DNA from: Candidatus Caenarcanales bacterium
GTDB taxonomy: Bacteria > Cyanobacteriota > Vampirovibrionia > LMEP-6097
DNA length: 64,000 nucleotides
Direction: 5' to 3'
NCBI GenBank assembly: GCA_022447685.1
Contig: JAKVAO010000004.1
Coordinates: 1,978 to 65,977 of the forward strand
Part shown: positions 5,649-62,290 of the stretch, piece after piece
Layout of the letters: every line of letters starts with the position of its first letter
How positions within the stretch are numbered: the first letter of the stretch is position 1
The notes under the pieces: model-generated
The model's database searches: none
Told to the model about the DNA's origin: nothing
The model's input: the letters and a program-made list of their open reading frames with translations, nothing else
Position numbers and translations under genes: made by a program

Positions 5649-6977
5649 ATGCAAATGCACTGGGAAGGTACTAAAAAGAAACAAGGTCCTCTAGCACTAG
5701 AACCTCGAAAACAAGAAGAAATCAAAGCAGCAATATCCAAAGAATCACAGCAAAGCTCAGGTATATTTAATTTATTCAACAAAAAAGAAAATTCACTTAA
5801 CTATGAAGAAGCTGGAGAGAAGAAGGCTCTAGAAGTACTTGAGCTCGGTAGTACCGCTGTAATTTTAGGTGTCAAAGACTCAGAAACAGGTAACTATGAA
5901 AAAGTAATAAGAGTAGATAGTAATTTTCCACCTAATGTCCCTATCACCCAACATCTAGAACACTCTTATCAAAGCCTAGAGTCTCTTCAAGGAAGCCCAT
6001 ACGTAATTCGTGCTTCTGAAACCACACAAGTACAAGACAAAAATGGCAATATCAGCTTTATCTCAGGCGTTGAATACTTAGACAGTGACAAATGGGCGAA
6101 CTTCGATAAGAATCTTGAGGTCTCTGAAGCTAGGGAAAATACTAATATGAGTAAAGCAGAATTAGTTCAGTCTCTAAAAACAGTTCAGGGACTACTTACA
6201 GCTAGTCAAGGAATTTATCAACAGGGAGCAAGCCTTACTAACACTAAAGAATTTAAGGTTAATACTGAAACAGATCAAGCTATTTATGCACATCCAGGTG
6301 GGCTTAAAAAGCCAGTAGACAGTGTCACAGGCGCAATTCTAGGATCTGTACCATTACTAAATCTGAATAATGAATACCAATATGCTAACTATCTTGCAAG
6401 AGCAGATGAGCAGAATCTAAGCCCAGAGGATAGAAATTCTAAAACAGCAGCTATAGCAAATGCTGTCCGTAATCAACAACAAATACCGATTTTCGCAACT
6501 ATGATTGGCTTGGAGCAATCTATTACTGGAAAGTGGCATTATGGAAACGCTCTAAAAAAACCAATACCTAAAGCAATCACTAAAAAAGATACTTTAATTC
6601 AAAAATCACTCTCAGTAAATAACACTTACAATATGAGTTTGGAAAAATACCGCAAACAATTCCAACAAAAATACGCAAGAGACATTGACCAAAACGCTCA
6701 CCATGAAAACTTCAAAGCAATTCTAAAAAAATTACCTGAAAAGCTTGTACAAAATTCCCAACAAAATAAAGAATTACGCAACGAAATAGCAAATCTCGTA
6801 AATGATCTTACTAGTCTTAAGAAAACCAATCCAGGAATGACTGAAAAAGAAGCTTTAAAAAACCCTGAAGGCTATCAATATCGCCTAAGATCTGAAGATG
6901 ATTCAAAAACAGATAAAGAATATAATCCAAGGAAAGAGCAAACTGAAGAAGTTAAGGATCCACTGAAAAACGTCTAA
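5649..6977 (+). CDS. hypothetical Q/N/S-rich protein (effector-like paralog family); start uncertain
   Basis: 442-aa ORF from the first ATG. The same frame is open and coding-like (…NFNQSSSNPSNNHQVQ…) back to 5349 with no ATG. The 5' region is homologous at nucleotide level to the leaders of the 9956/11173, 8412 and 18921 genes. Confidence 0.5.
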   Translation: MQMHWEGTKKKQGPLALEPRKQEEIKAAISKESQQSSGIFNLFNKKENSLNYEEAGEKKALEVLELGSTAVILGVKDSETGNYEKVIRVDSNFPPNVPITQHLEHSYQSLESLQGSPYVIRASETTQVQDKNGNISFISGVEYLDSDKWANFDKNLEVSEARENTNMSKAELVQSLKTVQGLLTASQGIYQQGASLTNTKEFKVNTETDQAIYAHPGGLKKPVDSVTGAILGSVPLLNLNNEYQYANYLARADEQNLSPEDRNSKTAAIANAVRNQQQIPIFATMIGLEQSITGKWHYGNALKKPIPKAITKKDTLIQKSLSVNNTYNMSLEKYRKQFQQKYARDIDQNAHHENFKAILKKLPEKLVQNSQQNKELRNEIANLVNDLTSLKKTNPGMTEKEALKNPEGYQYRLRSEDDSKTDKEYNPRKEQTEEVKDPLKNV

Positions 6978-7146
6978 AGTAACATTTTTCAACCCTTACC
7001 GAGGAATAAATCCTAGCTCAGGGAGCGGATCCTTAATATTCTTTATCAGGCAGTCGCCACTCAAAACTTCGTTTTGCAGTGCCTCCTTAACTTTACAAAT
7101 GTTCAGCGAAGAATAGCTAATATTATTGAGAAGCTAAATCAACCAT

Positions 7147-7204
7147 AAATATGCAGTAAAACTTCAGATTTAAATCGTAAATGTGCAGTAGAACTTCAGA
7201 TTTA
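7147..7204 (+). promoter_or_regulatory. two 26-bp direct repeats (AAATATGCAGTAAAACTTCAGATTTA / AAATGTGCAGTAGAACTTCAGATTTA) upstream of ATPase gene
   Basis: 24 of 26 positions identical with a 32-bp period. The repeats end 4 bp before a TATAAT box at 7209..7214 and the ATG at 7221. Confidence 0.4.
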
Positions 7205-7208
7205 TGGG

Positions 7209-7214
7209 TATAAT
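7209..7214 (+). promoter_or_regulatory. -10 box GGGTATAAT, 6 nt upstream of the ATPase start (leaderless-type)
   Basis: TATAAT hexamer at 7209..7214 and ATG at 7221. The same layout recurs at all four ATPase paralogs. Confidence 0.4.
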
Positions 7215-7220
7215 AAGAAT

Positions 7221-8393
7221 ATGGACTATATTAAACGAGTAATTAAATTACCGAAGAAATATAGTTTTTTCCTTTTTGGACCGAGACAAGTAGGTAAAAG
7301 TACTCTTCTAAAGAAATATTTTTCTGAGACTGAGAGTATGAAATATGATCTATTAGACTTTTCACTACTAAGGAAATTAGAAAAGGATCCCAGTATATTT
7401 TTTAATGAAGTAGAGTCAAGAGCTAAAAAAATAAAATATGTTTTAGTTGATGAAGTACAAAAACTCCCTTGGATACTAGATGAAGTTCATAGAGTGATTG
7501 AGAATAGTGAAAATCCACCTTATTTTATACTCACAGGTTCAAGTTCACGCAAACTAAAACAATCTCAAGCCAATCTTCTAGCTGGCAGGGCAATATCAAA
7601 ATTTCTATTTCCATTTATCTATGAAGAACTGCACAATTTTAATTTAAATGAAATCTTGCAATTCGGTTCTCTACCTAATGTTTATCTTCAGGAGGACAAA
7701 AATATTAAATACGAAATCCTGAAATCATATACCAACACATATATAAAAGAAGAGATTAAAGAAGAAGCTCTGGTTAGAAATCTCAATGCTTTCAATGAAT
7801 TTTTATACTTTGCTGCTGAAGAGAATGGCAATCTAATAAATTACAGCAATATAGCTCAAGATACTGGAGTTAGTTTAAATACGATTAAGGAATATTATCA
7901 AATACTCATGGATACATTAATGGGTTTTATGCTCATGCCAATCAGAAAGTCAGTCAGGCAACAAATAGCAAGAAGCCCAAAGTTCTATTTTTTTGATACT
8001 GGAGTTCAAAGAGCTTTAAGCAACAAACTACAAGTAGCACTAGTCCAAAAAACCAAAGAATACGGTAAAGCTTTTGAGCACTGGCTTATAAAAGAAATCA
8101 TCTATAAATCTAAGTACAACAATAAAGACTATAAGTTTTCTTTCTATAGAGTAAATGAAAATATTGAAGTTGATTTAGTAATTGAAAAGCCAGATGGAGA
8201 AATACTTGCTATAGAAATCAAAGCAAATAATAACCCTAAAGCAGAAAAATTGAAAGGTTTAAAATCATTTAATAAAATTTTCCCTGAAGCAAAGCTAATA
8301 TGCTCCTGTCTTACAGACAAAATCCAAGAGATAAATAAAGATAATTATAAAATTACTATAATTCCATGGCGAGATCTTCTTGAACTTATATGA
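7221..8393 (+). CDS. AAA+ ATPase, DUF4143 family (COG1373), paralog 1
   Basis: Walker A motif LFGPRQVGKST near the N-terminus, an hhhhDE Walker B (YVLVDEVQ) and a C-terminal DUF4143-like region. It is paralogous to the genes at 15624, 17649 and 62291. Confidence 0.8.
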   Translation: MDYIKRVIKLPKKYSFFLFGPRQVGKSTLLKKYFSETESMKYDLLDFSLLRKLEKDPSIFFNEVESRAKKIKYVLVDEVQKLPWILDEVHRVIENSENPPYFILTGSSSRKLKQSQANLLAGRAISKFLFPFIYEELHNFNLNEILQFGSLPNVYLQEDKNIKYEILKSYTNTYIKEEIKEEALVRNLNAFNEFLYFAAEENGNLINYSNIAQDTGVSLNTIKEYYQILMDTLMGFMLMPIRKSVRQQIARSPKFYFFDTGVQRALSNKLQVALVQKTKEYGKAFEHWLIKEIIYKSKYNNKDYKFSFYRVNENIEVDLVIEKPDGEILAIEIKANNNPKAEKLKGLKSFNKIFPEAKLICSCLTDKIQEINKDNYKITIIPWRDLLELI

Positions 8394-8395
8394 TC

Positions 8396-8409
8396 TGTTA
8401 TTATCTTGG
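8396..8409 (+). promoter_or_regulatory. conserved leader motif copy (TGTTATTATCTTGG) before ATG 8412
   Basis: The TATTAT hexamer lies 8 nt upstream of the ATG. Shares ATTATCTT with the 9938 and 18870 copies. Confidence 0.35.
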
Positions 8410-8411
8410 AT

Positions 8412-9344
8412 ATGGTAACGAATCCTCCTCCTAGTCTTCCTCCTCAAAATGCAGCTTTAGTTAAATTTACCGATACTAATATTGAGAATAGAGTTCCACC
8501 CAATGCTAATCAGGCAATGAATCAAACTAAAGATAAAGATGGAAGGAATCCAATTGATTTAATTTTGGCACAAAAACAAATAAATAATAATTCAGATTCA
8601 ATGAGACCAGAAGATGTAGTTAAAAGACAAATCAACACAAGTATCAAAAATTATGAAGATCTAGAAAGAGTTATCAATGAGACACCAAATGTTATTGACA
8701 CTGAGACTCAAAAAGCATTAGGACAACTTATCACTAATCTAACAGTCTTAAGAGACAATATAGATATTCCTTCTATAACAGAAAATCAAGAATCTCAAAG
8801 TCTGTTATCAAATATTGAACTAATGTCAGGAGCTTTAAATATCTTTAACAGTCAAAGAGCATACATTACTAATAACGATAATACTAATAGACCTGATAAC
8901 TTAGAAGAGAGAACTCAAGTTTTGAACACTTTAAAACAAAATCTCCCAATAGTCATCAACACACAATTAACTAATAGCCAAAAACTTATAAGTACAGCTG
9001 TACTAAAACCACAATATGAGAGTATCATGAATAATTTTGATTCAGCAATTAAGCAACTTCAAAACAACCCTGAAGCTAGTTCAATACTAAAAAATGCCCA
9101 AACTGATCTAAATTTATTTAAAGAAATACTAGGCACAGGTGGAGCAAGTTCTGAATCCGTCATAAATAAGACTTTAACTCTTAATCAAGAACTCACTGAT
9201 TTAAATAATCAACTCAAAGACGGAACTGTTGAAGATTTCGGTCTCAATAATGTTGTGGGTTTTATCGCAAAACTAAGTGATGATCTAGTAGTTGAAGGTA
9301 AAGCACTCGATATACAAGAGGATTTACAAAATATACAAAATTAA
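8412..9344 (+). CDS. hypothetical Q/N-rich effector-like protein (N-terminus MVTNPPPSLPP)
   Basis: The ORF track starts at TTG 8406, but the first ATG is at 8412. The protein has the N-terminal P-P-S motif shared with three other genes and no recognisable domain. The frame continues coding-like for 51 codons after the TAA stop (9345..9500). Confidence 0.6.
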   Translation: MVTNPPPSLPPQNAALVKFTDTNIENRVPPNANQAMNQTKDKDGRNPIDLILAQKQINNNSDSMRPEDVVKRQINTSIKNYEDLERVINETPNVIDTETQKALGQLITNLTVLRDNIDIPSITENQESQSLLSNIELMSGALNIFNSQRAYITNNDNTNRPDNLEERTQVLNTLKQNLPIVINTQLTNSQKLISTAVLKPQYESIMNNFDSAIKQLQNNPEASSILKNAQTDLNLFKEILGTGGASSESVINKTLTLNQELTDLNNQLKDGTVEDFGLNNVVGFIAKLSDDLVVEGKALDIQEDLQNIQN

Positions 9345-9504
9345 AGAGCACAAGAATTAAAAAAAGCAGCCTGGCAAGACCTAATTAAAGCAAGAACATT
9401 TGAAACAATACCACCACAACAAGCCCTACAAGGGGGAAATAATACTGGTATTAACCCTGCACTACTCCTTCAAATCAGAAATCAATTTCTAAATAATTAA
9501 AACC

Positions 9505-9873
9505 CTAAGCCTTCAAATCAGGTCTCAAATTAGCAGCCTCACCAAGGTAAACATGCTTAACCTCAGCTTGCTCCACTGGCAAATTACACTGAACTAATAA
9601 ACGCACACATCTAGCGAGCATGCCATCTATCTGCGGCTCCTGAGATGTGAAAAAAGGTATATGCTGCCAGCCCATACCCTGACGTATAGCTGATGACGCA
9701 TTCAAAGAAGTTAAATCAGAAGTCATAGTCAGAAACAGCATAACAATATCAGCTTCAGGCTTGATATTGTTCTTCTCTATAATCTGCTTGATCATTTCAA
9801 GTGACGCAGCTTTAATTTCTTCAGCACTATCAACATTGACAGTGGTAGCTCCACGAATTGCAACTAATCCCAT
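9505..9873 (-). CDS. aroH: AroH-class monofunctional chorismate mutase
   Basis: 122 aa. MGLVAIRGATTVNVDSAEEI...RPDLKA aligns along its length with Bacillus AroH (MMIRGIRGATTVE...LRPDL). Confidence 0.75.
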   Translation of the reverse strand: MGLVAIRGATTVNVDSAEEIKAASLEMIKQIIEKNNIKPEADIVMLFLTMTSDLTSLNASSAIRQGMGWQHIPFFTSQEPQIDGMLARCVRLLVQCNLPVEQAEVKHVYLGEAANLRPDLKA

Positions 9874-9937
9874 GAATACTAAGTTTAGCAGGTAGTATCT
9901 GAATAATTGTAGAAGAGTTCAAATTCAAGATAAAATT

Positions 9938-9951
9938 TGCTATTATCTTAA
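9938..9951 (+). promoter_or_regulatory. conserved leader motif TGCTATTATCTTAA immediately upstream of the pre-insertion start codon (ATG 9956)
   Basis: Identical 14-mer at 18870..18883. The TATTAT hexamer lies 9 nt before the ATG at 9956. Confidence 0.4.
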
Positions 9952-9959
9952 AATTATGA

Positions 9960-9967
9960 TTTCTAAT
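9960..9967. repeat. left copy of 8-bp target-site duplication TTTCTAAT
   Basis: Identical octamer at 11219..11226, directly abutting the IS inverted repeats. Confidence 0.6.
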
Positions 9968-11218
9968 TCAGGGCAACCGCAAAGTCGTCTTAGCTATTTT
10001 GGAAAAGAATATCTTGTAAGTACTGATTACTAGAAGCCGCTTTAACTCTTCGTGTTTTAAGACTTTTCTTCGACTCAGAATCTTTTTTAAGTAAATTTAA
10101 AGCAATTTTTCTAGCCATAGCAAGGTTTTGTGGAGCATTATCCTTTCTTACTCTTGATTCATCTTCTCTAAAAACAACATCTAAAATACAATGTAAGTTG
10201 TTTTCTATGTTCCAATGAGATCTAACAATATTCAGCAACTCTTCTGCAGAAAGGTTTAAGCTCGTTATGTAATATCTTCTTTGGCTGGTTTCTTTTTTTG
10301 TTTTTACATCATATTTTTGAGATTCAACAACAAATACCGTTTTTAAATCTTTCCAAGCTGTAATATTATCAAAAAGTTTTTCTTTAATATCCCACTCCGT
10401 GAGAGGGACTGTGTAACATAGAAGTTTTTCAATTCTTCCATGATCTTTCTCAAATTTAGTTTCAAAAAAATCATACTCTCTTTTAAAACCTTCTTCTATT
10501 CCTTTATCTAAAAAGCTTTTTACATTTTTATGGAACAAGCCTTGATTACCTTTTAAAGCTAAAACATAATCAGCTTTTGCTTTTCTAATATCTTTTGCTA
10601 TTTCTTTTTGACAGCCCATTGCATCGATAGTTACTATCTTCTTATTCAAGTCTAAAAGCCTTATCAGTTCAGGAATTGCTGTAATTTCATTACTCTTTTT
10701 GTCTACTGCCACTTGTCCAAGACTCAAGCCATTACTACAACACCAAACATTTACTAAGTGCAAGGCTGACTTTTTTGAGCTATTTTCATATGAAGATCTC
10801 AATGTTTTACCATCAATAGCTACTATTGCTCCTTCTGTGATAGTTGCAAGCGCTTGTGACCAAGCAGTAAAACAGTTAGCAAATTCCTTTGGATTTATTT
10901 CTGCAAAAACTCTTTCAAAAGTATCATGGGACGGGATGCCGTGTTTTAAATCTAAAAAAGTTCTTAACCAATCTTCTTTCGCTTCACATATTGCTACTAT
11001 TTCCTCCCAGTCATCAGTTTTACAGATACTTCCGACTATCGCTAAGAGAATTATTTCTAGCAAATCGTGACGTTTTCCACGAGAATCACGAGGATCTTCT
11101 AGCTCATTAAAATATTCTTCTACTAAACTTTTACTTACTTTCACAACTCTATTAAGTCATGAATACTGGCTATTGGCCAGACTTACATTCGTATTAGACG
11201 ACTTTGCGGTTGCCCTGA
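9968..11218 (-). mobile_element. ISAs1-family insertion sequence (1251 bp), intact
   Basis: ~23-bp terminal inverted repeats: TCAGGGCAACCGCAAAGTCGTCT at 9968.. and its reverse complement ending at 11218. It contains a single transposase ORF and is flanked by the 8-bp direct repeat TTTCTAAT. Confidence 0.8.
9990..11144 (-). CDS. ISAs1-family (H-repeat-associated) DDE transposase
   Basis: 384 aa carrying the ISAs1 hallmark blocks KSNEITAIPELIRLLD, DAMGCQKEIA, LKGNQG, YYITSL and SHWNIENNLHCILDVVFREDE. Confidence 0.85.
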   Translation of the reverse strand: MKVSKSLVEEYFNELEDPRDSRGKRHDLLEIILLAIVGSICKTDDWEEIVAICEAKEDWLRTFLDLKHGIPSHDTFERVFAEINPKEFANCFTAWSQALATITEGAIVAIDGKTLRSSYENSSKKSALHLVNVWCCSNGLSLGQVAVDKKSNEITAIPELIRLLDLNKKIVTIDAMGCQKEIAKDIRKAKADYVLALKGNQGLFHKNVKSFLDKGIEEGFKREYDFFETKFEKDHGRIEKLLCYTVPLTEWDIKEKLFDNITAWKDLKTVFVVESQKYDVKTKKETSQRRYYITSLNLSAEELLNIVRSHWNIENNLHCILDVVFREDESRVRKDNAPQNLAMARKIALNLLKKDSESKKSLKTRRVKAASSNQYLQDILFQNS

Positions 11219-11991
11219 TTTCTAATTACACTCCACCCTCAAGTACTATAAGTTTCAATTACAACAACACAAATCAGACTTTAGTTAAGACTATTGATTA
11301 TAAAGAGCCGGAACTTAATATACCTGGATCTGATGCTAGTCAGAAAATGAAAGCAACAGAAAATGATAATAGAAACAATCATACCCTGACAACAAAACTT
11401 AATGCTATTCCAACAAATATAGAAAACACTGAAAACCTAGTAGCAATAAAAGTACCAGACAACTTTAATATGCAGCAATTTGAAAATATAGGTAGAGAAT
11501 TGTCAGAAGAACTTAATATTCAAATTGAAAAACCTGAAGAGCAAGCTCCAGATCTAAGTGATTTCATTGACATGAAAGAAATTAATCAATTTAACAACAA
11601 TGATACACAAGGAAAAACAGATACACTTCTTAAAACCTTTACAGAAGTAAGAAACTTTTTAAACAAGCCAGAAACTAATATATTTGGAAAAGTAGTTATA
11701 GATACAATGCTAGACAGCCTCTCAAAACTAGTAAAGGAAAATTATGATCAAGTAATTAAGAACGAGACTAACAATAACTCCAAGGATAATTTTAATAAAC
11801 TATTTTTACAATTAAGAGTACTTAAAGTGATTTTAGAAAAGCAAAACACAATTAATAATCTAAATCCCCCAGGACATGACCGACACGACCAAATCGCAGC
11901 AGAAGGCAGAGATATTATTCATACATACGTTGGAAAAATAATTAACCAGACCAATACAATACTTCCAGAAGACCAACAAATGGACTTATAA
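11173..11991 (+). CDS. hypothetical effector-like protein, 5' end replaced by the IS insertion (the present ORF starts at a TTG inside the IS inverted repeat)
   Basis: Removing 9968..11226 restores ...TATCTTAAAATT ATG ATT TCT AAT TAC ACT CCA CCC TCA AGT, encoding MISNYTPPSS, which joins in frame to the downstream body. The Q/N-rich body has no known domain. Confidence 0.6.
   Translation: MARLTFVLDDFAVALISNYTPPSSTISFNYNNTNQTLVKTIDYKEPELNIPGSDASQKMKATENDNRNNHTLTTKLNAIPTNIENTENLVAIKVPDNFNMQQFENIGRELSEELNIQIEKPEEQAPDLSDFIDMKEINQFNNNDTQGKTDTLLKTFTEVRNFLNKPETNIFGKVVIDTMLDSLSKLVKENYDQVIKNETNNNSKDNFNKLFLQLRVLKVILEKQNTINNLNPPGHDRHDQIAAEGRDIIHTYVGKIINQTNTILPEDQQMDL
11219..11226. repeat. right copy of 8-bp target-site duplication TTTCTAAT
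   Basis: Matches 9960..9967. Confidence 0.6.
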
Positions 11992-11992
11992 A

Positions 11993-12400
11993 TTATCTAA
12001 CAACCAAAAACTCAGCTATTAATGCATTAAAATCATCAGCAAAGTCATTGTATGCACTAACGAAGCCTATGGTATGCTTACTTCCAAAAAATTCTTCCAT
12101 AGCTTCACAGAAGTAAGCATCATCGAAATCACTGTATTCAGTGTTAATAATAATATCTAAAGTATCCTCATAGGCGCCTGGATCGAAATCCAATAATTTT
12201 TTTCTAAATTTGAAAAACTCCGCTACTGAATTCTGAATATATTCTTTACTCAATCTCGAATAATCTTCACGAGTAAGATCATTAAATCTTGATTTCATAT
12301 CAATAGTCGCAGCGATTAACTGATTAATTCTACCTCTGATGTATAAATCTTTGAGAGATAAAATTTCTAAGCAATATACTTTTAATTTCTTGCCCTTCAT
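11993..12400 (-). CDS. hypothetical protein (135 aa)
   Basis: Clean ORF with coding-like composition and no recognisable motif. Confidence 0.45.
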   Translation of the reverse strand: MKGKKLKVYCLEILSLKDLYIRGRINQLIAATIDMKSRFNDLTREDYSRLSKEYIQNSVAEFFKFRKKLLDFDPGAYEDTLDIIINTEYSDFDDAYFCEAMEEFFGSKHTIGFVSAYNDFADDFNALIAEFLVVR

Positions 12401-12572
12401 ATCATCTTATATCGACAGATCTATGCTTTCGCAAACTAGAGGGAAGGTACTATATTTAATTTTTATATTCATAAAAAATCAGTCTTTCATACCACTAAAT
12501 AAAGATATGCTATTCATTTGAACCGATTTTGCGTCACTGAAAGAATACAGCAAATTTGCTACTATAACTAAG

Positions 12573-12926
12573 ATGGAAACGAAAATGCAGCATCAAACAC
12601 CGTGGGGAGCTTGGGAAGTTTTGGATGATGCTGAATCGCATAAAGTTAAGAAAGTCACGATTAAACCTGGTCACAGACTAAGTTACCAGAAGCATTTTAA
12701 AAGAGAAGAGAATTGGTTTATAGTTCAAGGTAAAGCCAAAGTCACTCTAAATGATGAAGAGCATACTCTCAGCACAGGCGAATTTATCCATATTCCATTT
12801 GAAGCTTTACACCGAATCGAAAACATTGATGACACCATTGAACTCATATTTATTGAAATTCAGAGAGGTTCTTACTTCGGAGAGGACGACATAGTACGTG
12901 TGTCTGATGATTACGGTAGAGATTAG
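12573..12926 (+). CDS. cupin-domain protein (mannose-6-phosphate isomerase type II C-terminal cupin-like)
   Basis: WGAWEVLDDAESHKVKKVTIKPGHRLSYQKHFKREENWFIVQGKAKV...GEFIHIPFEALHRIENIDDT...IEIQRG is the classic stand-alone cupin_2 pattern. Confidence 0.7.
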   Translation: METKMQHQTPWGAWEVLDDAESHKVKKVTIKPGHRLSYQKHFKREENWFIVQGKAKVTLNDEEHTLSTGEFIHIPFEALHRIENIDDTIELIFIEIQRGSYFGEDDIVRVSDDYGRD

Positions 12927-12942
12927 GGTATAATCTCTAGGT

Positions 12943-14199
12943 ATGGCAGAAAAAAAAGGAAATTTCTTCTTCACTTCAGAATCAGTAAGTGAAGGTCACC
13001 CAGATAAGATTTGTGATCAAATCTCAGACGCAGTCTTGGACGCGATTTTATCGAAAGACCAGACGGCGAGGGTTGCCTGTGAAACATTTTGTACTACTGG
13101 ACTTGTAGTTGTAGGTGGTGAAATCACAACTAATTGCTACGCTCCAGTAAATGAGATCGCAAGAGACAAAATTAGAGAAATTGGTTACTCAGGAAAAATG
13201 GGCGGCGGTTTCGACGCTGATAACTGTTCTGTAATGGTAACTTTAGACCAACAATCAGCTGATATCTGTGCAGGTGTTGATAAATCACTAGAAACTAGAG
13301 ACAGCGATGAAGAAGATACTGGTGCTGGTGACCAAGGAATTATGTTTGGCTTTGCTTGTAATGAAACTTCAGAGTACATGCCGCTTGCAATTAATCTTTC
13401 ACACGCGATAGTGAAACAATTAGCTGATGTCAGAAAAAATCACCCTGATATCAACTATCTAAGACCTGACTCTAAGTCTCAAGTAACTATAGAGTATAGA
13501 GACGGTGTAGCTGCAAGAATAGAAGCTATAGTAGTTTCCACACAGCACGATCCAGAAGTTAAGGGTGAAACAGAAAACTCTAAAATCCAAGAAATTATTG
13601 CACAGGATATTAGAAAACTAGTTATAGACAAAGTCCTAAAAGACGCACCAGTTAAAATTGATGATAAAACCAAACTCTACTTCAATCCATCAGGAAGATT
13701 CGTAATCGGTGGACCACAAGGTGACGCTGGTCTTACTGGTAGAAAAATTATAGTAGATACCTACGGTGGCTATGCCCGTCATGGTGGTGGTGCTTTCTCA
13801 GGAAAAGACCCAACCAAAGTAGATAGATCCGCTGCTTATGCAGCACGCCATGCAGCGAAAAATATAGTAGCTGCTGGTTTAGCTGAACAATGTGAAATTC
13901 AACTTTCTTATGCTATTGGTGTAGCCAAGCCTACAAGCATTTACGTAAACACGTTCACAACTAGTGAACATTCTGACGAGAAACTTGTTCAAATTATCGA
14001 ACAAGTTTTCGATTTCAGACCTAAAAAGATCATTGAGAACTTCGATTTACTGTGGATGCCAGCTAAAAGAAATGGTAGGTTCTATCAAGAAACAGCTAAA
14101 TATGGTCACTTCGGTAGAGATGATTTAGATTTGCCTTGGGAAAGACTTGATAAAGTTGATGAAATTAAGAAAGTTCTTGAAAGTGCTTGTGTGGCTTAA
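12943..14199 (+). CDS. metK: S-adenosylmethionine synthetase
   Basis: [39 protein letters not shown] and [23 protein letters not shown] are MetK signature blocks. Confidence 0.95.
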
Positions 14200-14266
14200 G
14201 TAGCTCTTTATAATAAAATTATTAACAATAGGAAAATCTTTAAAATAAGAAGATAAGATTTTCTGA

Positions 14267-15505
14267 ATGATACCTAGCAGCTCTGGTGATAAATTTGATA
14301 AAGTTCAGCCTTCAAGTACTTCTAACGCAATAACGAGAAAGCAACAAGGAAACGAAGTCAGTGAAATAAAGAACCAAGATTCTAATGTATTTTCTGCTAA
14401 AGGGAATCAAGAACCACTTACTATAGATTTTAATGAAAGACCCCTAAGTGAAGAAGAACAAAAAATTCTTGCTTTAGTCCCAGAGAACCTAAGAGCCCCA
14501 GTCTTATACTTCATGCTTCATTTAGATGAAAAAGAAGGCAAAGCTGCGATATTAAATAATTTAAGTCAGAATCTAAATCCTGCTTTCTTACTAGCTCAAA
14601 TGAATGGTCAAGACGAAAGTGTATCTTATGCTATGCCTGAGTATCAAAGCAGAGCAAATTATCTGGAAACAAATGATAATAATACAGCTGCCTACTCACA
14701 AGCTAAAACAAGACAGAAAAGAACCTTAGTAGAAAATCTATCAAACTTATCAACTGATAATTTAGCTGAACTTGAAGAAATTACCGCTGCTTTAGTGCAA
14801 AGTGCTAAAGAAAATCAAAATATTCAAATCAGCCCAGAAGCTGTGCAATTATTAGAAAATATTAAACCGGAAATCAGTCTTTTAAGTCCACAGGAAAGAC
14901 AAGAGTTTTTCTCTGCCATGTACTTCATTAAAGATGCTGTTGCCAGTAATATAATTAGAGAAGAGGATGAGGGAAAATTTATACCAAACCAAGAGAACAA
15001 TATGTTTGATCCACAAGATAGTATTCTTGAGATAAATCGTCTGAAAACAATGCAAGCAGACTTAAATACAATGCAACAGCTCGGAATAATAAATGATCAA
15101 AATCTCTACAAAACCATAAAAAATAATCTTAGCCGCCAAGCCAAAAATCTAGGTCAACACAATATGGTTCACAAAGCTTTAATTACAATTGCTGCTATCA
15201 ATGCCTTACAGGGTAAAGATTTTCAAATAAACTCTGATTTCATCAGCAAAGAAGAGCAGGGAAGATTTATACACGCAAATACTTTAGACGCAACAGTAAT
15301 TTCACAAGAAGCTAAACAATATATGTCAAGCAATATTAATTTCTATGACATTGCCAAACTAGGCTCAAGAATTCTAGAGGAACTGAAATCTTCCAAACAA
15401 AATAGCTCAGAATCAAGTATCAAGCAACTCAAAACAGCTGCAGAATCTGTGAGAAAAGAAAAACCTGAATTGTTTGACAATCTTCATTTAACAGTTAGTT
15501 TATAG
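14267..15505 (+). CDS. hypothetical Q/N/S-rich effector-like protein (N-terminus MIPSSSGD)
   Basis: 412 aa with no domain hit by eye. Has the N-terminal P-S-S motif of the family and ends with TAG. Confidence 0.6.
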   Translation: MIPSSSGDKFDKVQPSSTSNAITRKQQGNEVSEIKNQDSNVFSAKGNQEPLTIDFNERPLSEEEQKILALVPENLRAPVLYFMLHLDEKEGKAAILNNLSQNLNPAFLLAQMNGQDESVSYAMPEYQSRANYLETNDNNTAAYSQAKTRQKRTLVENLSNLSTDNLAELEEITAALVQSAKENQNIQISPEAVQLLENIKPEISLLSPQERQEFFSAMYFIKDAVASNIIREEDEGKFIPNQENNMFDPQDSILEINRLKTMQADLNTMQQLGIINDQNLYKTIKNNLSRQAKNLGQHNMVHKALITIAAINALQGKDFQINSDFISKEEQGRFIHANTLDATVISQEAKQYMSSNINFYDIAKLGSRILEELKSSKQNSSESSIKQLKTAAESVRKEKPELFDNLHLTVSL

Positions 15506-15611
15506 CTATGTTGCACCAAACCTAAATCGACGAATACTTTATTTTCCATAAGATTGCTAAGCGTTTCTAAGCAATTATTAACAAATCGCAAAAAATTTGC
15601 AATTTCATAGG

Positions 15612-15617
15612 TATAAT
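15612..15617 (+). promoter_or_regulatory. -10 box AGGTATAAT, 6 nt upstream of ATG 15624
   Basis: Same GGTATAAT-N6-ATG arrangement as at 7209 and 62278. Confidence 0.4.
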
Positions 15618-15623
15618 ACAAAT

Positions 15624-16829
15624 ATGCAAAAAATTTCCCGAACAATATTAAGTAAATTAATATCTGAGCTGGAGAACGACAAAGTATTGATTCTTTTAGG
15701 AGCAAGGCAAGTTGGTAAAAGCTTTCTAATGAATGAACTAGAGTTAAAACTTAAAAAAGCATCCAAGAAATTTAATAGCTATAACTTAGAAATCCCAAAA
15801 GATAACCGAATCTTCGCTAGAGATGAATTAGAGCTATATGAAGAAATCAGTGAAGGAGTAAATTATTTATTTATAGATGAATTTCAATATTATAATAATG
15901 CTTCTCATTTATTCAAAGCCTTTTATGATGATAGAAGAAAAAAAATCAAAGTTATAGCATCTGGTTCATCTGCTTTAGAAATGCATAAACACCTAAAAGA
16001 AAGTTTAGCTGGCAGAAAAAAAACCTATATTATTTACCCACTTAGCTTCAAAGAAGCTCAAGAAACCAAGGTCAGTTTTAATAATTATTTACTATACGGT
16101 GCTTTAGCAGAAATCCTTAATATAGAACAAAAAACAGATAAAATCACTGCACTTGAAGAAATACACAGTACTTATATATTAAAAGATATCAAAGCACTGA
16201 TTAAAGAAGAAAGTATTTCTAGTTTCAATGCTTTAATATACAGCTTAGCTCAAAACCAAGGACAAATTATTTCAAGTAATTCTTTAGCGAATGATTTGCG
16301 TTTAAATACACAAAGCTTAGAGCGTTACCTAGAGATTCTAGAACAAACCTATGTTCTTTATAAATTATCTAGTTTTTCTAAAAACTTAAGTAATGAGCTA
16401 AAAAAATCTAAAAAATACTATTTTTATGACAGTGGAATTCGAAACTCAATACTAAATAACTTCTCATCGATAGAAAAAAGAAAAGATAAAGGCAGTATCT
16501 ACGAAGCTTACGTAGCACAATTCTTAACTATTAACTCAATACCAAACTCAGAGCTTCGCTTCTGGAGAACCAGGAATGGAGATGAAATTGATTTCGTATT
16601 CTTAAAAAACCAAGTTCCGTATTTATTTGAGGTAAAATCGAAACTAAAAAGAAAAGAAATTCCAAATGCTATGAAAATCTTTTTGCGTAATTACCGTGAG
16701 ATTGGTGGAGCTTATATCATTAACGAAAACCTTGATGAGGAACTAGAATATTCTGGAGTAACTGTAAGATTTATTCCAATTAATAAGCTAGAAGAAGATT
16801 TGGAGATAGCTGAAATATTTTCAACTTAA
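15624..16829 (+). CDS. AAA+ ATPase, DUF4143 family, paralog 2
   Basis: The ORF track starts at TTG 15597, which would run through the TATAAT box. From ATG 15624 the protein MQKISRTILSKLISELENDKVLILLGARQVGKSF aligns with the N-terminus of paralog 3 and shows high identity to it overall. Confidence 0.8.
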   Translation: MQKISRTILSKLISELENDKVLILLGARQVGKSFLMNELELKLKKASKKFNSYNLEIPKDNRIFARDELELYEEISEGVNYLFIDEFQYYNNASHLFKAFYDDRRKKIKVIASGSSALEMHKHLKESLAGRKKTYIIYPLSFKEAQETKVSFNNYLLYGALAEILNIEQKTDKITALEEIHSTYILKDIKALIKEESISSFNALIYSLAQNQGQIISSNSLANDLRLNTQSLERYLEILEQTYVLYKLSSFSKNLSNELKKSKKYYFYDSGIRNSILNNFSSIEKRKDKGSIYEAYVAQFLTINSIPNSELRFWRTRNGDEIDFVFLKNQVPYLFEVKSKLKRKEIPNAMKIFLRNYREIGGAYIINENLDEELEYSGVTVRFIPINKLEEDLEIAEIFST

Positions 16830-16834
16830 TCTAA

Positions 16835-17530
16835 CTAAGCTTCCGCTTTCTTAGACTTTATATCCTTCAGCTCCGCTTCCAAAGACTCAATCTTCTCCTG
16901 CATAGCCTGCAAAGTAGCACCAACAAAGTCCGGTGTCTTATTATGCTCTAAATTATCAATATTATCTATGCATTCTTTGAGTTCACCATTCATTTTCACA
17001 ATTCGTCCTGGGATTCCTACCACTGTTGAATAAGATGGAATATCCTTTAGAACTACTGAATTAGCACCAACTTGAACATAATCCCCAATATCTATATTTC
17101 CCAAAACCTTGGCTCCAGCACCAACGACAATATTCGAAGCTAAAGTCGGATGACGTTTTTCTTTTTTCGTAGAAACTCCACCTAAGGTCACTCCCTGATA
17201 GAGTGTTACATTATCACCAATGATAGTAGTTTCACCAATGACCACCCCTGTGCCATGATCTATAAAAAAATCTTTCCCTATCTGTGCCGCTGGGTGAATC
17301 TCAATACCAGTAATAATCTTAATTACATGAGCTGAGACTCTTACTATAAATTTGGTAAGTGGTTTGAGAAAAGCTAAAAAACCATAATCTTTAGTCCACA
17401 AAACATGAAAAATTCTATGCGCCAAAATCGCATGAAAACCTGGGTAACAAAATAAAATTTCAAAAATTGAGTTACAGGCAGGATCTTTCCTGTAGATATT
17501 TTTTATCTCCTCCTGAAAAGTCCTGAACAT
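16835..17530 (-). CDS. cysE: serine O-acetyltransferase
   Basis: C-terminal left-handed beta-helix hexapeptide repeats (GIEIHPAAQIGKDFFIDHGTGVVIGETTIIGDNVTLYQGVTLGG) and an N-terminal SAT helical domain. Confidence 0.85.
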   Translation of the reverse strand: MFRTFQEEIKNIYRKDPACNSIFEILFCYPGFHAILAHRIFHVLWTKDYGFLAFLKPLTKFIVRVSAHVIKIITGIEIHPAAQIGKDFFIDHGTGVVIGETTIIGDNVTLYQGVTLGGVSTKKEKRHPTLASNIVVGAGAKVLGNIDIGDYVQVGANSVVLKDIPSYSTVVGIPGRIVKMNGELKECIDNIDNLEHNKTPDFVGATLQAMQEKIESLEAELKDIKSKKAEA

Positions 17531-17572
17531 ATTTGTGATTATACTATGACTGGAAATTGGATAATTTTGACC

Positions 17573-17611
17573 TTACTTAAGAATCCTGCCACTAGCAAGA
17601 TTCTTAAGTAA
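17573..17611. promoter_or_regulatory. perfect 13-bp inverted repeat TTACTTAAGAATC-N13-GATTCTTAAGTAA in the cysE/ATPase divergent region
   Basis: Arms 17573..17585 and 17599..17611 are exact reverse complements. The element sits about 25 bp upstream of the -10-like box of the ATPase gene. Confidence 0.35.
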
Positions 17612-17636
17612 TGGTTAGGAATTCCACCCAAAGTGG

Positions 17637-17642
17637 TAAAAT
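17637..17642 (+). promoter_or_regulatory. -10-like box GGTAAAAT, 6 nt upstream of ATG 17649
   Basis: Conserved position relative to the start in all four ATPase paralogs. Confidence 0.35.
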
Positions 17643-17648
17643 TAAGTA

Positions 17649-18863
17649 ATGCAGGAATTTCAAAGACAATTAATAGAAACCCTGCTTAAAGAACTTACGA
17701 ACTCTAAAGTTACCTTAATCTTTGGACCTAGACAGAGTGGTAAAAGCTTTTTGATGAATCACATAGCAAGTCAAGTAAAAGGCAAATTTACTTACTACGA
17801 TTTTGAACAACCTGCTGATCTTAGAAAATTTACAGGCAATGATGAGGATATACATGAACTACTTCTAAATTCAGGCAAAACAGTATTCATAGACGAATTT
17901 CATTATCTAAAAAATGCCGGGAAAATTTTTAAAGGAATCTATGACTTAGGTAAACGTAACCCTAAAAAACAAATCAAAATCTTTGCCTCCGGCTCTTCTG
18001 CCATTGAAATGCACAAACATATAAAAGAAAGTATGGCTGGAAGAGTTCACAAATACCAACTTATGCCTCTAAGCTTAGAAGAATACTCATCTATTGATTT
18101 AGATAAAGAAAATTACTTTATTTATGGTGGCTTACCAGAGACTTATCAATATGACGGAGAAGAAAGAGAGAGCTACCTAAATGGTATTCTTGAAACCTAC
18201 ATCCAGAAAGACATTAAATCTCTAGTAAAAGAAGAGAACATTTCAAGTTTTAATAAATTAATCTATATGCTTGCAGCAAGTCAAGGACAAGTAGTCTCAG
18301 TGAGTAATCTTGCAAATGACTTAAGCGTATCAGCACAAACAGTTCAATCTTACCTAGATACTTTGGAGCAGACTTATACTCTTTATCCTTTGAAATCCTT
18401 TTCAAATAACCTTAGCAATGAATTAAAAAAATCGCGTAAGTACTACCTCTATGACCTAGGAATTAGAAATGCACTAATTAAAGACTTTAGTAAATTAAAT
18501 GAGCGCAAAGATCTTGGCTGCATTATGGAAAGCTATGTTTATCACTATCTTCTCTTCATAGCCAATAAAGCAAATACCGATATTTTCTTCTGGAGAACTA
18601 GTAAAGGCAATGAGGTAGACTTCGTCTGGAAAAAAAATCAAAAACTTATTCCTATAGAGGTAAAAAACAAATATGAAGTGAGTAATCTTAGTAAAGGTAT
18701 GGAAACCTTCATGAGATATTACCCTCTAACAGAAAAAGCTATTATTTTGTTTAATAAGTCAAATAATTTTGATGATTATCAGGAAATTAATCTTCGAGGT
18801 AGGACTCTTTATTTAATAAATATTGGAAATGCTCATTTATACTTGAGGGATGTTTTGCAGTAG
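17649..18863 (+). CDS. AAA+ ATPase, DUF4143 family, paralog 3
   Basis: Walker A motif IFGPRQSGKSF, with long blocks identical to paralog 2 (SSFN.LIY.LA..QGQ..S.SNLANDL.....Q....YL..LEQTY.LY.L.SFS.NLSNELKKS.KYY.YD.GIRN). Confidence 0.8.
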   Translation: MQEFQRQLIETLLKELTNSKVTLIFGPRQSGKSFLMNHIASQVKGKFTYYDFEQPADLRKFTGNDEDIHELLLNSGKTVFIDEFHYLKNAGKIFKGIYDLGKRNPKKQIKIFASGSSAIEMHKHIKESMAGRVHKYQLMPLSLEEYSSIDLDKENYFIYGGLPETYQYDGEERESYLNGILETYIQKDIKSLVKEENISSFNKLIYMLAASQGQVVSVSNLANDLSVSAQTVQSYLDTLEQTYTLYPLKSFSNNLSNELKKSRKYYLYDLGIRNALIKDFSKLNERKDLGCIMESYVYHYLLFIANKANTDIFFWRTSKGNEVDFVWKKNQKLIPIEVKNKYEVSNLSKGMETFMRYYPLTEKAIILFNKSNNFDDYQEINLRGRTLYLINIGNAHLYLRDVLQ

Positions 18864-18869
18864 AACCCA

Positions 18870-18883
18870 TGCTATTATCTTAA
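18870..18883 (+). promoter_or_regulatory. conserved leader motif TGCTATTATCTTAA upstream of the 18921 gene
   Basis: 14 of 14 identical to 9938..9951. It is followed by a vestigial ATGATCTAT (compare ATGATTTCT at 9956), and then TTAAAATATGATT resembles TTAAAATTATGATT at 9956. Confidence 0.4.
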
Positions 18884-18920
18884 TCCTATGATCTATTATA
18901 TTTAGGTTTCAAATTAAAAT

Positions 18921-20453
18921 ATGATTAACCCAAGCTCAAATCAAAGAGACCCCAACATTAGATTCTTACTGAAAACAAATGGTGAAAAAATAACAGTAAC
19001 ACCTTATAAACAAGCTCCTATTGCCAACAAAATTCTCCACAAAAAAGATCAAACAATTCCAAGAGAAGAAACACCTAAAATAAATCCAGAAATGACAGCA
19101 GGAGATTTAACAGAAATATTATTTACATTCAAGCCAAGTGACTTCTACAACAAACAAAATAACGAAAATTTAAGAGTAGTTATAAAGGAGAAAGCAGATT
19201 TTGGCTTTGAAAGGGAAGTTAGAAAGTGGAGAGAGAAATTCCCCAAATTAAACTTTAAACAAAGATTGGGATTCTTATCTATGTTTGCAGAAAAACATGA
19301 AGAGCTAAATATAAAAACAAATCAATTTAAAAGAAATAATGACCACCTAAGAAAATTTATAGACAACCGAGCTTTAGAATTTTTAAGAAATGAAATAGCC
19401 AAGGAAGAACTTTTCTCAAATAAAAATAAAGATTCTAAAGAATTTAATGATTTCAATAATCTATTTATTTCACTAAAAAAACTCAGACACGGTTGGGCAT
19501 ATAGGCAAGACAGTATTCATCAGTTATTAGTACAAAAAATTGACTGGGAAAAACCGCTGACAGACAATACCTTGAAGCTAATAGAAAGTAGTTTCATACA
19601 TCCCATAGAACATTATGCACAAGGTAAAAGAGTTGAATACTATGAAGAAAGAGAATTACTTGCAGAAGTAAGTGCAAACTTAAAAAAATATAATCATCCA
19701 AAACAAGAAATATACAAAAATGCCTTCGAATATAATCCTAATCAAGAATTTGCATTAGCAAAATTAACAGATGTATTGGAAGAGTATTTAAAAGAACAAA
19801 AATTGTCTAACATGGGTGAAAATATGTCACCAGAAATCAATTATGCAATCGAAGGTTCGCTATATTCAATTTTCCATGACTACGCACATTATCTTTTAAA
19901 TGATGAAAATTTTATACCAAATCTTGAAAATGAAAATAAAAGTGAAGAAGATGAATTAAAAGTTAGACAAAATGAATTAAGAGTAGCTGCTGCTGAAGGT
20001 CTGATGTACTTCATATTAGATATACGCTCCTCCGGAAGATTTTCACCATCAAATGAATGGGCGGATTCATCCTACGCAAATCAACTAGAGTATTATAATA
20101 AATACAGAGATACCACACCAGGCTTAAGTAAAGAAGAAGTAGAAGTATCCAAACTTTATGGTATTTTTATGGCTCTCCAAACTATAAACCATAATATGAA
20201 TGTACTTAAAAATTATTCAAACAACAAACTTTTAAACTATCACACTAAGACAAGCGACCTAGCAAAATTTGAGCCTGCACCTACAAAAATAATAGTTAAT
20301 GGCGAGGAAACTACTTGGTACGAACTAATCAAAAAAGATCCTGCTAAATTTGAAAAAATCATTTCTGACTCAATAGATAAAATACTAGAAAATCGAAAAA
20401 AATCTGAAGAAATTATCCCAGACTCAACAGATGAAAATAAAGCTAAAATATAA
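18921..20453 (+). CDS. hypothetical K/N/E-rich effector-like protein (N-terminus MINPSSNQRDP)
   Basis: 510 aa with the N-terminal P-S-S motif of the family and no recognisable domain. Confidence 0.6.
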   Translation: MINPSSNQRDPNIRFLLKTNGEKITVTPYKQAPIANKILHKKDQTIPREETPKINPEMTAGDLTEILFTFKPSDFYNKQNNENLRVVIKEKADFGFEREVRKWREKFPKLNFKQRLGFLSMFAEKHEELNIKTNQFKRNNDHLRKFIDNRALEFLRNEIAKEELFSNKNKDSKEFNDFNNLFISLKKLRHGWAYRQDSIHQLLVQKIDWEKPLTDNTLKLIESSFIHPIEHYAQGKRVEYYEERELLAEVSANLKKYNHPKQEIYKNAFEYNPNQEFALAKLTDVLEEYLKEQKLSNMGENMSPEINYAIEGSLYSIFHDYAHYLLNDENFIPNLENENKSEEDELKVRQNELRVAAAEGLMYFILDIRSSGRFSPSNEWADSSYANQLEYYNKYRDTTPGLSKEEVEVSKLYGIFMALQTINHNMNVLKNYSNNKLLNYHTKTSDLAKFEPAPTKIIVNGEETTWYELIKKDPAKFEKIISDSIDKILENRKKSEEIIPDSTDENKAKI

Positions 20454-62090: not shown

Positions 62091-62193
62091 ATTTCACGAG
62101 TAGTTATTAAGATAATTGTATTATGGTGTGGTTGTTTGTATTTATATTTTATACTTGTTTTATTTTCTGGTTGGCTTTTGTGCTTTTTAATTT

Positions 62194-62287
62194 TTCGACT
62201 ATAATCGATGAAAGTAGTTAATATTGATTTATTTCGACTATAATCGAAATAAAAGTTAAAATTGTAATTATTTCGGGTATAATCGAA
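62194..62287 (+). promoter_or_regulatory. three tandem 39-bp units, each carrying the near-palindrome TTCGA(c/g)(t/g)TATAATCGA(A)
   Basis: Copies at 62194..62208, 62233..62248 and 62272..62287 with exactly 39-bp spacing. The spacer sequences are also similar. The last copy supplies the TATAAT 7 nt before the GTG start at 62291. Confidence 0.5.
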
Positions 62288-62290
62288 ATA

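Follow-up and report, generated by a model that had tools for sequence, protein, structure and literature searches.

Four genes encoding paralogous AAA+ ATPases lie within a 64-kb stretch of DNA from a Candidatus Caenarcanales bacterium (Cyanobacteriota; Vampirovibrionia; GenBank assembly GCA_022447685.1, contig JAKVAO010000004.1, forward strand, positions 1,978 to 65,977; guanine-plus-cytosine (GC) content 33%), hereafter referred to as the window. Each of them carries a -10-like hexamer directly in front of its start codon, raising the question of how these genes are expressed and whether they act on their own or in the service of the unannotated genes next to them. Based on the comparison of the window with homologous loci, we consider it probable that they are self-contained, autorepressed, and mostly leaderless single-gene modules of the PDC-S01 family.

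The ATPase genes and their start-adjacent -10 boxes

The open reading frames (ORFs) of the window were listed and searched with Pfam profiles. Four ATPase genes (A1 to A4) were located in this way, and a fifth paralog (A5) lies approximately 2 kb past the window end:

A1, 7221-8393, plus strand: ATPase of 390 amino acids (aa); AAA_14, winged helix, and DUF4143 PD-(D/E)xK domain; PADLOC PDC-S01 match, E = 1e-65
A2, 15624-16829, plus strand: ATPase of 401 aa; Pfam AAA_14 and DUF4143; PADLOC match, E = 5e-87
A3, 17649-18863, plus strand: ATPase of 404 aa; Pfam AAA_14 and DUF4143; PADLOC match, E = 7e-88
A4, 62291-63523, plus strand: ATPase of 410 aa with a GTG start; PADLOC model PDLC04787, E = 2e-149
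A5, locus L012 13194-14378, minus strand: fifth ATPase paralog

The assignment to a COG1373-type family, proposed in the initial annotation of the window, was confirmed for all four window genes by hidden Markov model (HMM) searches with PF13173 (AAA_14, E from 2e-22 to 3e-35) and PF13635 (DUF4143, E from 2e-19 to 5e-39). Furthermore, the PADLOC PDC-S01 profile HMMs cover nearly the full length of A1 to A4, whose Walker A motifs read GPRQVGKST, GARQVGKSF, GPRQSGKSF, and GMRRSGKSY. A2 and A3, initially described as highly similar, share a moderate identity of 45%, and the remaining pairs share 21-27%. With identities of 21-45% the paralogs are old, so that an 8-mer at a fixed distance from their start codons is not the remnant of a recent duplication. 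A3 shares 95% identity with a protein of the Candidatus Caenarcaniphilales metagenome-assembled genome (MAG) DT_14 and 46% with proteins of other Melainabacteria/Vampirovibrionia, the A1 ortholog in locus L008 shows 53% identity, and many metagenome contigs carry the locus with its interleaved housekeeping genes metK, rsmH, Ham1, ssb, and rpsF.

PDC-S01 is one of 145 unvalidated phage-defense candidates (10.1101/2024.01.29.577857). It has been described as the fourth commonest “defense” locus of prokaryotes, likewise unvalidated and consisting of an ATPase with a fused PD-(D/E)xK domain (PMC12988326), and as the commonest single locus in rumen genomes (PMC13356809). It represents a single-gene system, often present in multiple copies, in Bacteria as well as Archaea (PMC12988326; PMC13356809), and DUF4143/COG1373 had been placed among the PD-(D/E)xK families with its function unassigned in 2012 (PMC3424549). 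Literature on DUF4143, COG1373, and PF13635 was found to consist of lists and surveys only. Four copies in 64 kb had been regarded as unusual for a bacterium; the family is, however, typically multi-copy and self-clustering (PMC12988326, PMC13356809), and Melainabacteria relatives host three ATPase paralogs inside 5 kb. A1 to A4 are ordinary PDC-S01 members, and nothing sets them apart from the family. A sequence search against the PDB gave no match for the ATPase, and Rfam and tRNA scans of the window gave none either.

Upstream of the four window genes, the following -10 boxes were found:

A1 -10 box, 7207-7214, plus strand: GGTATAAT, then 6 nucleotides (nt) and ATG 7221; read directly
A2 -10 box, 15610-15617, plus strand: GGTATAAT, then 6 nt and ATG 15624; read directly
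A3 extended -10, 17634-17642, plus strand: TGGTAAAAT (that is, (T)GGTAAAAT; TGn plus TAAAAT), then 6 nt and ATG 17649
A4 -10 box, 62276-62283, plus strand: GGTATAAT, then 7 nt and GTG 62291; read directly

The motif GGTA(T/A)AAT reported before each of the four start codons was thus recovered at its exact positions, with gaps of 6, 6, 6, and 7 nt. A5 has GGGTAAAAT, 6 nt, and ATG; the A3 extended -10 sequence is identical in locus L005 of MAG DT_14, and the A1 ortholog in L008 shows GGTAAAAT, 6 nt, and ATG. In agreement with the initial annotation, ATG 15624 and not TTG 15597 was taken as the start of A2, because the N-termini of A2 and A3 align from residue 1 to residue 1; an independent gene call likewise yielded 401 aa. 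GGAG, GAGG, and AGGA are absent from the gap and the -10 box in A1 to A4, and a Shine-Dalgarno sequence, for which three of the four genes had been said to lack room, is missing from all four.

Within the window, GGTATAAT occurs five times on the plus and zero times on the minus strand, close to the expectation from base composition. Chance is excluded for its placement, because four of these five occurrences precede real start codons at 6-8 nt, namely those of three ATPase genes and of metK (12943). The fifth (60786-60793, plus strand) lies antisense within gene 60369-62090 (minus strand) with no ORF behind it and could be a chance occurrence or an antisense promoter. Of the 52 window genes, 16 have a -10-like hexamer at a distance of 5-9 nt upstream of the start, compared with 4-5 at control spacings. 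By the same criterion, all four ATPase genes stand against 12 of the 48 others (Fisher one-sided p = 0.007), and these 12 do not permit the layout to be called ATPase-specific. Genes with a start-adjacent -10 box in the window include metK, Ham1, a cysE-like gene, PNP, and dnaN; a second species keeps the layout at three of them (metK, Ham1, and the cysE-like gene; comparison with L005, L008, and L009). Ten out of 16 TA[TA]AAT-N6-9-ATG sites in the window start a real gene. Of 14 TA[TA]AAT-N6-8-ATG sites in 104.5 kb of sequence from other Melainabacteria, 13 start long ORFs, among them metK of a second species with, again, GGGTATAAT, versus 18 of 97 sites at a spacing of 11-30. Judged from these sites, leaderless-type promoters look frequent in Melainabacteria; literature pairing the term “leaderless” with this lineage was not found.

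The leading GG of GGTATAAT was considered as an ATPase-specific signal and rejected, since metK carries the identical GGGTATAAT in two species. For the same reason, it is better read as a putative lineage-typical extended -10 (G at -14); in some homologs the GG also forms the inner end of an operator arm (TAC-nnn-GTA). A generic sigma-70 and terminator scan was uninformative in this AT-rich DNA, with fewer matches than in shuffles, and of the four ATPase promoters called that of A4 alone (-35-like TTAAAA, 16-nt spacer).

Promoter layout and putative operators among homologs

To what extent this arrangement extends beyond the window was examined with 80 fetched metagenome loci of A1 relatives, covering 24-69% identity and 31-73% GC. 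A total of 75 A1-relative loci were analyzed with start codons assigned by homology. The spacing of TAnnnT peaks sharply at 6 nt before the start (25 of 75 loci), and at spacings of 5-9 nt the motif is present in 35 loci, versus 8 and 15 at two control spacings. Among the loci with at least 58% GC, it was detected in 9 of 21, compared with 1 of 21 in the control. Base counts over the 75 loci revealed T at -12 in 39, A at -11 in 52, T at -7 in 45, and G at -14 in 30 loci. TTG at -35 to -33 emerges from the same counts, and TTG was found 16-18 nt upstream of the hexamer in 23 out of 35 loci versus 6 at a control spacing. An SD-like (Shine-Dalgarno-like) core, by comparison, occurs in only three of the 75 loci. 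A test independent of the choice of start codon identified the layout in 28 of 76 ATPase ORFs versus 24 of 292 neighboring ORFs (p = 7e-9), which corresponds to a 4.5-fold enrichment over neighboring genes in the homologous loci.

The same arrangement was found with A3-like genes. Those of Chlamydiae, Saganbacteria, and Margulisbacteria MAGs display TTGAC(T/C), a spacer, TA(G/T)AAT, 6-7 nt, and ATG, and those of other Melainabacteria show GGGTATAAT 5-9 nt before ATG. Homologs often carry TTGACA 17 nt upstream of the -10 hexamer and no Shine-Dalgarno sequence. The interpretation of the hexamer as a -10 box giving rise to leaderless mRNAs, already put forward in the initial annotation, hence gained comparative support, as homologs of 30-70% GC keep it 6-7 nt upstream of the start and free of a Shine-Dalgarno sequence. 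At the level of sequence, the layout is clear in the sampled A1- and A3-type relatives across many phyla, and its geometry is that of a predicted sigma-70 promoter whose start site would be the first base of the start codon. Relatives on viral contigs (L104-L109) have a Bacteroidota-type TAnnTTTG approximately 17 nt before the start in place of TATAAT at 6 nt, and the theme of a short leader may follow the host's type of promoter.

The second recurrent component consists of palindromic or repeated elements lying over these promoters:

A1 putative operator, 7147-7172 and 7179-7204, plus strand: two 26-nt direct repeats, 32 nt apart, the second abutting the -10 box
A2 putative operator 1, 15553-15575 (-71 to -49), plus strand: ATTGCTAAG-cgttt-CTAAGCAAT
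A2 putative operator 2, 15583-15605 (-41 to -19), plus strand: AAATCGCAAA-aaa-TTTGCAATTT
A3 putative operator, 17573-17589 and 17595-17611, plus strand: inverted repeat TTACTTAAGAATCCTGC / GCAAGATTCTTAAGTAA with 17-nt arms
A3 palindrome, 17618-17625, plus strand: GGAATTCC, occupying the expected -35 position
A4 putative operator, 62193-62210, 62232-62249, and 62271-62288, plus strand: three copies of TTTCGAnTATAATCGAAA, spaced 39 nt, with arms flanking TATAAT

Each A1 repeat is an imperfect palindrome, TAAAT(A/G)TGCAGTA(A/G)AACTTCAGATTTA. The A3 inverted repeat reached a score of 14, matched by none of 100 shuffles, and its arms are kept in L005 with a different loop; A3-like genes of several Melainabacteria (L006-L011) contain GGAATTCTAGA-aaa-TCTAGAATTCC at the equivalent position. 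The -10 box of A4 is enclosed by the third copy of TTTCGAnTATAATCGAAA. A homolog with 56% identity from another phylum (L116) has the A4 operator TTTCGA..TCGAAA as well, with TTTTCGATATATCGAAAT upstream. A5 has TTTTGGACCA-g-TGGTCCAAAA at -38 to -18. Every operator in the window is unique there and found upstream of its own gene only. The “individualised upstream operators” of the initial annotation are therefore borne out, with each copy having its own palindrome or repeat and with promoter-overlapping inverted repeats being enriched in the sampled homologs. For the latter, the region from -60 to +6 was scored against shuffles, with other gene starts of the same loci serving as controls. Inverted repeats at p <= 0.05 were detected in 31 of the 75 loci (41%) and at 7 of 99 control starts (7%; Fisher p = 7e-8), those at p <= 0.01 in 20 of 75 loci and at 2 of 99 control starts. 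A typical homolog element spans approximately -30 to -2 with the -10 box contained in its right arm, e.g., TGGGCTATTTACG-t-CGTAAATAGCCCA, GTTGTTAATATAC-acg-GTATATTAACAAC, and GGGTAAAAT-n7-ATTTTACCC. Comparison of protein groups showed the same operator with the same recognition helix and different operators with different helices. Since no other gene is co-inherited in the homologous loci, the winged helix of the ATPase itself is the obvious candidate binder.

Protein architecture, gene neighborhood, and competing explanations

A3 was modeled with AlphaFold2 from a 54-sequence alignment, yielding a predicted local distance difference test score (pLDDT) of 92.4 and a predicted template modeling score (pTM) of 0.91. 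In this model an AAA+ core is followed by a helical lid and a winged helix, with a nuclease fold of alpha-beta-beta-beta-alpha-beta topology at the C-terminus. The winged helix spans residues 195-267 (helices 195-210, 218-225, and 229-241, the last being the recognition helix; wing 245-267) and coincides with an HTH_11 Pfam match found in A3 alone (residues 202-246). The top PDB folds were the archaeal Walker ATPase 2qen, then Apaf-1 (STAND) and DNA-bound Cdc6/Orc1, with SIR2-STAND Avs5, RuvB, and DnaA as further fold neighbors. Walker A, Walker B, sensor-1, and the arginine finger are invariant across the 54 sequences (GxRxxGK[ST], hhDE, GS[SN], and (A/S)GR, respectively). The nuclease motif E...ExD...ExK is complete in A1 to A3. 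In A4 (residues ~352-357), Q-V-C replaces E-V-K, so that the catalytic lysine is missing though DUF4143 is present. The corresponding subfamily, with more than 7000 matches of 50-56% identity across many phyla, has an invariant Q-x-(A/C) followed by Y (YIQVAY) at the E-x-K site. A4 was ruled out as a decayed nuclease because Q-x-(A/C) is invariant across this very large subfamily; in the A4 clade, either the catalytic lysine has moved or the nuclease chemistry has been lost or changed.

This architecture bears on the proposal that the ATPases act as chaperones or unfoldases, into which the combination of an ORC/Cdc6-like AAA+ core, a winged helix, and a PD-(D/E)xK nuclease does not fit. The classical AAA profile (PF00004) stayed below its cut-off (18.4 versus 21.2 bits) and was hit by one paralog only, a Cdc48 chain ranked sixth among the structural neighbors at template modeling (TM) scores of merely 0.2-0.3, and neither the profile searches of A1 to A4 nor the fold search with the A3 model revealed a Clp/Hsp100 or classical-clade AAA domain with a substrate partner. 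The architecture therefore argues for DNA transactions and not for protein unfolding.

In its full form, the proposal of the initial annotation envisages an AAA+ cargo chaperone/unfoldase, or a dedicated regulator, for the effector-like protein encoded next to each ATPase. Of the eight flanking genes, five are indeed orphans whose hydrophilic products have a high content of Q, N, E, and K. MAG DT_14 retains the A3-18921 pair, A1 and 8412 stay together in all contexts, and four unannotated proteins of the window begin with a common M-(I/V)-x-(N)-P-(P)-S-S motif. The five neighbors (5649, 8412, 14267, 18921, and 60369) do not, however, form an “effector-like family”: they have neither Pfam/NCBIfam matches nor mutual similarity in an all-against-all BLASTP of the window ORFs, and their sole links, applying to some of them only, are the short N-terminal motif and one 30-nt upstream similarity. 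Their adjacency to the ATPases is not significant (binomial p ~0.11), because approximately 18 of the 52 window ORFs (~35%) are equally unannotated. The gene at 63527, also counted as effector-like, was identified by domain match as a T5orf172/MUG113-domain protein. No conserved partner gene emerged across the 75 homologous loci, the sole recurrent neighbor being another ATPase paralog (14 ORFs) and the next neighbor cluster occurring in five loci. In combination with the ORC/Cdc6/STAND-type fold and the absence of operator sequences upstream of the neighboring genes, this renders service to an adjacent protein extremely improbable. An effect of lineage only is a further alternative. Caenarcaniphilales and other Melainabacteria would then have leaderless promoters at many of their genes, the ATPases would merely conform to this, and the upstream palindromes would be chance products of AT-rich intergenic DNA with no regulatory role. 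Such an effect would account for the 12 other window genes including metK (GGGTATAAT), for the 13 of 14 sites in other Melainabacteria, and for the lack of significance of the A1 and A2 palindromes taken alone. It does not extend to homologs from unrelated high-GC organisms, for which leaderless genes are not typical and in which the geometry is found 4.5-fold over neighboring genes, nor to inverted repeats that are approximately 6-fold above control gene starts and fixed over the -10 box, with operators conserved within subfamilies. We regard it as unlikely.

An ATPase-nuclease could also be the mobility or addiction protein of a selfish mobile cassette, with genes moving alone or with an adjacent orphan. 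AAA+ plus PD-(D/E)xK recalls TnsC and TnsA, and five copies in approximately 67 kb, the spread of A4-type proteins across many phyla at 50-56% identity, and an ISAs1 as well as a MITE-like element (miniature inverted-repeat transposable element) nearby point in the same direction. A2 and orphan 14267 are absent at the syntenic site in L005, and A1 has three different left flanks in metagenome contigs. The contexts of A1 are explained, however, by the MITE-like repeat of 139 nt (6952-7090). A1 was consequently rejected as a mobile cassette, as the breakpoints of its left flanks are the two ends of this element, which is also found without A1. Terminal inverted repeats or target duplications bounding any ATPase gene were not found, and none of the 75 loci contains a transposase or other conserved partner. 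A3 resides in conserved synteny amid housekeeping genes at 95% identity in DT_14, and only six relatives were detected among 2.9 million viral contigs. A mobile cassette is thus very improbable.

The MITE-like element has terminal inverted repeats TTAAGGATCCACTGAAAAAC / TTAAGGAGGCACTGCAAAAC (opposite strand; 17 of 20 matching) and an inner inverted repeat TTAAGGATCC...GGATCCTTAA, and its first 26 nt provide gene 5649-6977 with its last eight codons and stop. At 6952, ends of the integron attC or IS605 type were considered and dropped, as the element travels with the downstream gene and its 20-nt terminal inverted repeats are flanked by TTAA. Locus L096 contains the upstream gene (442 aa) and the element but no A1, with synteny breaking exactly at the right end of the element; L014 and L015 contain the element and A1 but no upstream gene, with synteny breaking exactly at its left end. 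Because contigs break synteny exactly at its ends, the element is a recombination hot spot among strains, and recombination between MITE-like copies, not mobility of the ATPase, is the explanation to which these breakpoints point for the A1 rearrangements. In the metagenome strain L099 (7573-8744, equal to window 7221-8393), A1 is interrupted and reads as two ORFs (218 and 161 aa); a strain can therefore lose A1 with no obvious harm. An insertion sequence of the ISAs1 family (9971-11215; transposase 9990-11144, minus strand, NF033564 E = 8e-115) is bounded by inverted repeats of 26 nt and accompanied by a target duplication of 10 bp, ATTTCTAATT; it contains no ATPase gene. It landed right after the ATG of the orphan listed as 11173-11991, whose original N-terminus is MISNYTPPSS, and the right end of this element is the exact point where contig L013 and the window diverge.

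The N-terminal motif is found in the four hydrophilic proteins 8412, 11218, 14267, and 18921 (MVTNPPPS, MISNYTPPSS, MIPSSS, and MINPSS). In two cases the same 30-nt stretch, TGCTATTATCTTAA...TATGAT, is found upstream (9938-9967 versus 18870-18899), and the four may have a 5' module or an N-terminal signal in common. Orphan 18921-20453 is evolving very fast, since it shows 38% identity to its ortholog in MAG DT_14 (L005 11288-12715), compared with 80-96% for the flanking proteins. The T5orf172/MUG113 gene (GIY-YIG-like, from 63527) begins 4 nt past the A4 stop and is followed by a UDP-galactopyranose mutase gene and A5 on the minus strand (L012 11237-14378). A two-gene system of A4 and T5orf172 was rejected, as three A4-type homologs elsewhere have unrelated neighbors. 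On the minus strand, the window further encodes a protein of 1817 aa without Pfam match but with many diverged internal repeats (30226-35679; periods ~210-720 nt) and an 852-aa RTX (HemolysinCabind) protein with a 27-nt tandem array (47897-50455), a relative of which replaces A2 and 14267 in MAG DT_14.

Proposed autoregulation and its meaning for the family

The favored reading of autorepressed single-gene modules builds on how the protein domains are arranged and where the motifs lie, and on the finding that these features are conserved and enriched among homologs. A near-consensus -10 box carrying G at -14 would direct transcription to start on the initial base of the start codon or at most 1 nt away from it, and the resulting mRNA would be leaderless and need no Shine-Dalgarno sequence. 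Through its winged helix, the protein would itself bind the paralog-specific palindrome or repeat that overlaps the -35, spacer, or -10 region, probably in the form of a dimer or, like ORC and DnaA, of an ATP-dependent oligomer, and this binding would presumably repress, rather than activate, the promoter. Autorepression might buffer the ATPase-nuclease, which is potentially toxic, at a low level. Promoter, operator, and regulator would all reside within approximately 1.3 kb, and as no host-specific translation signal is needed, the module should work after horizontal transfer. Such portability fits the wide spread and the multi-copy occurrence of the family.

Several points weigh against this reading. 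We infer the transcription starts of A1 to A5 at the start codon from promoter geometry; A1 to A3 have no recognizable -35, and sigma-70 scans perform no better than shuffles in AT-rich DNA. The signal is in part a property of the lineage, because approximately a quarter of the other window genes share the geometry. Leaderlessness is not universal in the family either, since three A4-type homologs elsewhere keep a palindrome-embedded -10 followed by a leader of 25-30 nt, one of them with AGGAGG. A4 moreover starts with GTG, a codon at which leaderless mRNAs are poorly initiated in E. coli. The palindromes of A1 and A2 are individually not significant against shuffles in AT-rich DNA, and shared descent is a confounder for the pairing of operators with recognition helices. 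Finally, any anti-phage role would build on the candidate status of PDC-S01 only (10.1101/2024.01.29.577857; PMC12988326).

Comparison with known systems helps to place the proposed autoregulation. With the PDC-S01 family the window paralogs share the ATPase plus PD-(D/E)xK architecture, full-length HMM matches, and the organization as a partnerless single gene. The literature mentioning the family was found to contain no description of its promoter, leaderless layout, or operators, and it is these that are added here. The C proteins of type II restriction-modification systems (C.PvuII, C.AhdI, and C.Esp1396I) likewise combine a helix-turn-helix (HTH) protein with palindromic boxes upstream of its own gene in a horizontally mobile defense context, and their mRNAs are commonly leaderless, as inferred from the fixed distance between operator and ATG (PMC2632904). 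They are, however, small, stand-alone HTH proteins; activation by them precedes repression, and the nuclease gene under their control is a separate one, whereas regulator, ATPase, and nuclease would here be one non-homologous polypeptide. C-gene promoters also have no recognizable -10 box (PMC2632904), in contrast to the near-consensus box of the ATPase promoters. ORC/Cdc6, DnaA, and STAND NTPases (Apaf-1, Avs), the top structural neighbors, similarly consist of an AAA+ core followed by a winged helix, and bind specific DNA in an ATP-dependent manner. Identity to them is only 11-16%, the initiators lack a C-terminal nuclease, and the comparison gave no evidence of a replication role or of sensor repeats for the ATPases. 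Leaderless autoregulated repressors with operators overlapping their own promoter are represented by lambda cI, expressed from PRM, and the tetR of Tn1721; these have different folds and no enzymatic domains.

An extension of the proposed autoregulation would view each PDC-S01 paralog as an ATP-dependent, sequence-specific nuclease whose winged helix reads a distinct palindrome, the promoter copy of which would serve as autorepressor and self-titration site; five paralogs would then provide five specificities, and the promoter would be a portable cassette. We consider this extension quite improbable. If true, the five-paralog set would resemble a methylase-free restriction-like or ORC-like surveillance, and the leaderless, operator-embedded promoter would let the family cross distant phyla, possibly between Bacteria and Archaea.

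For a family as abundant as PDC-S01 (PMC12988326, PMC13356809), the layout yields cheaply testable hypotheses of regulation, and it shows how a mobile single-gene system may carry host-independent expression control. Were the protein to bind its own operator, every gene would document its DNA specificity in readable form, and self-binding would thereby offer a direct entry into the mechanism of a very large uncharacterized family.

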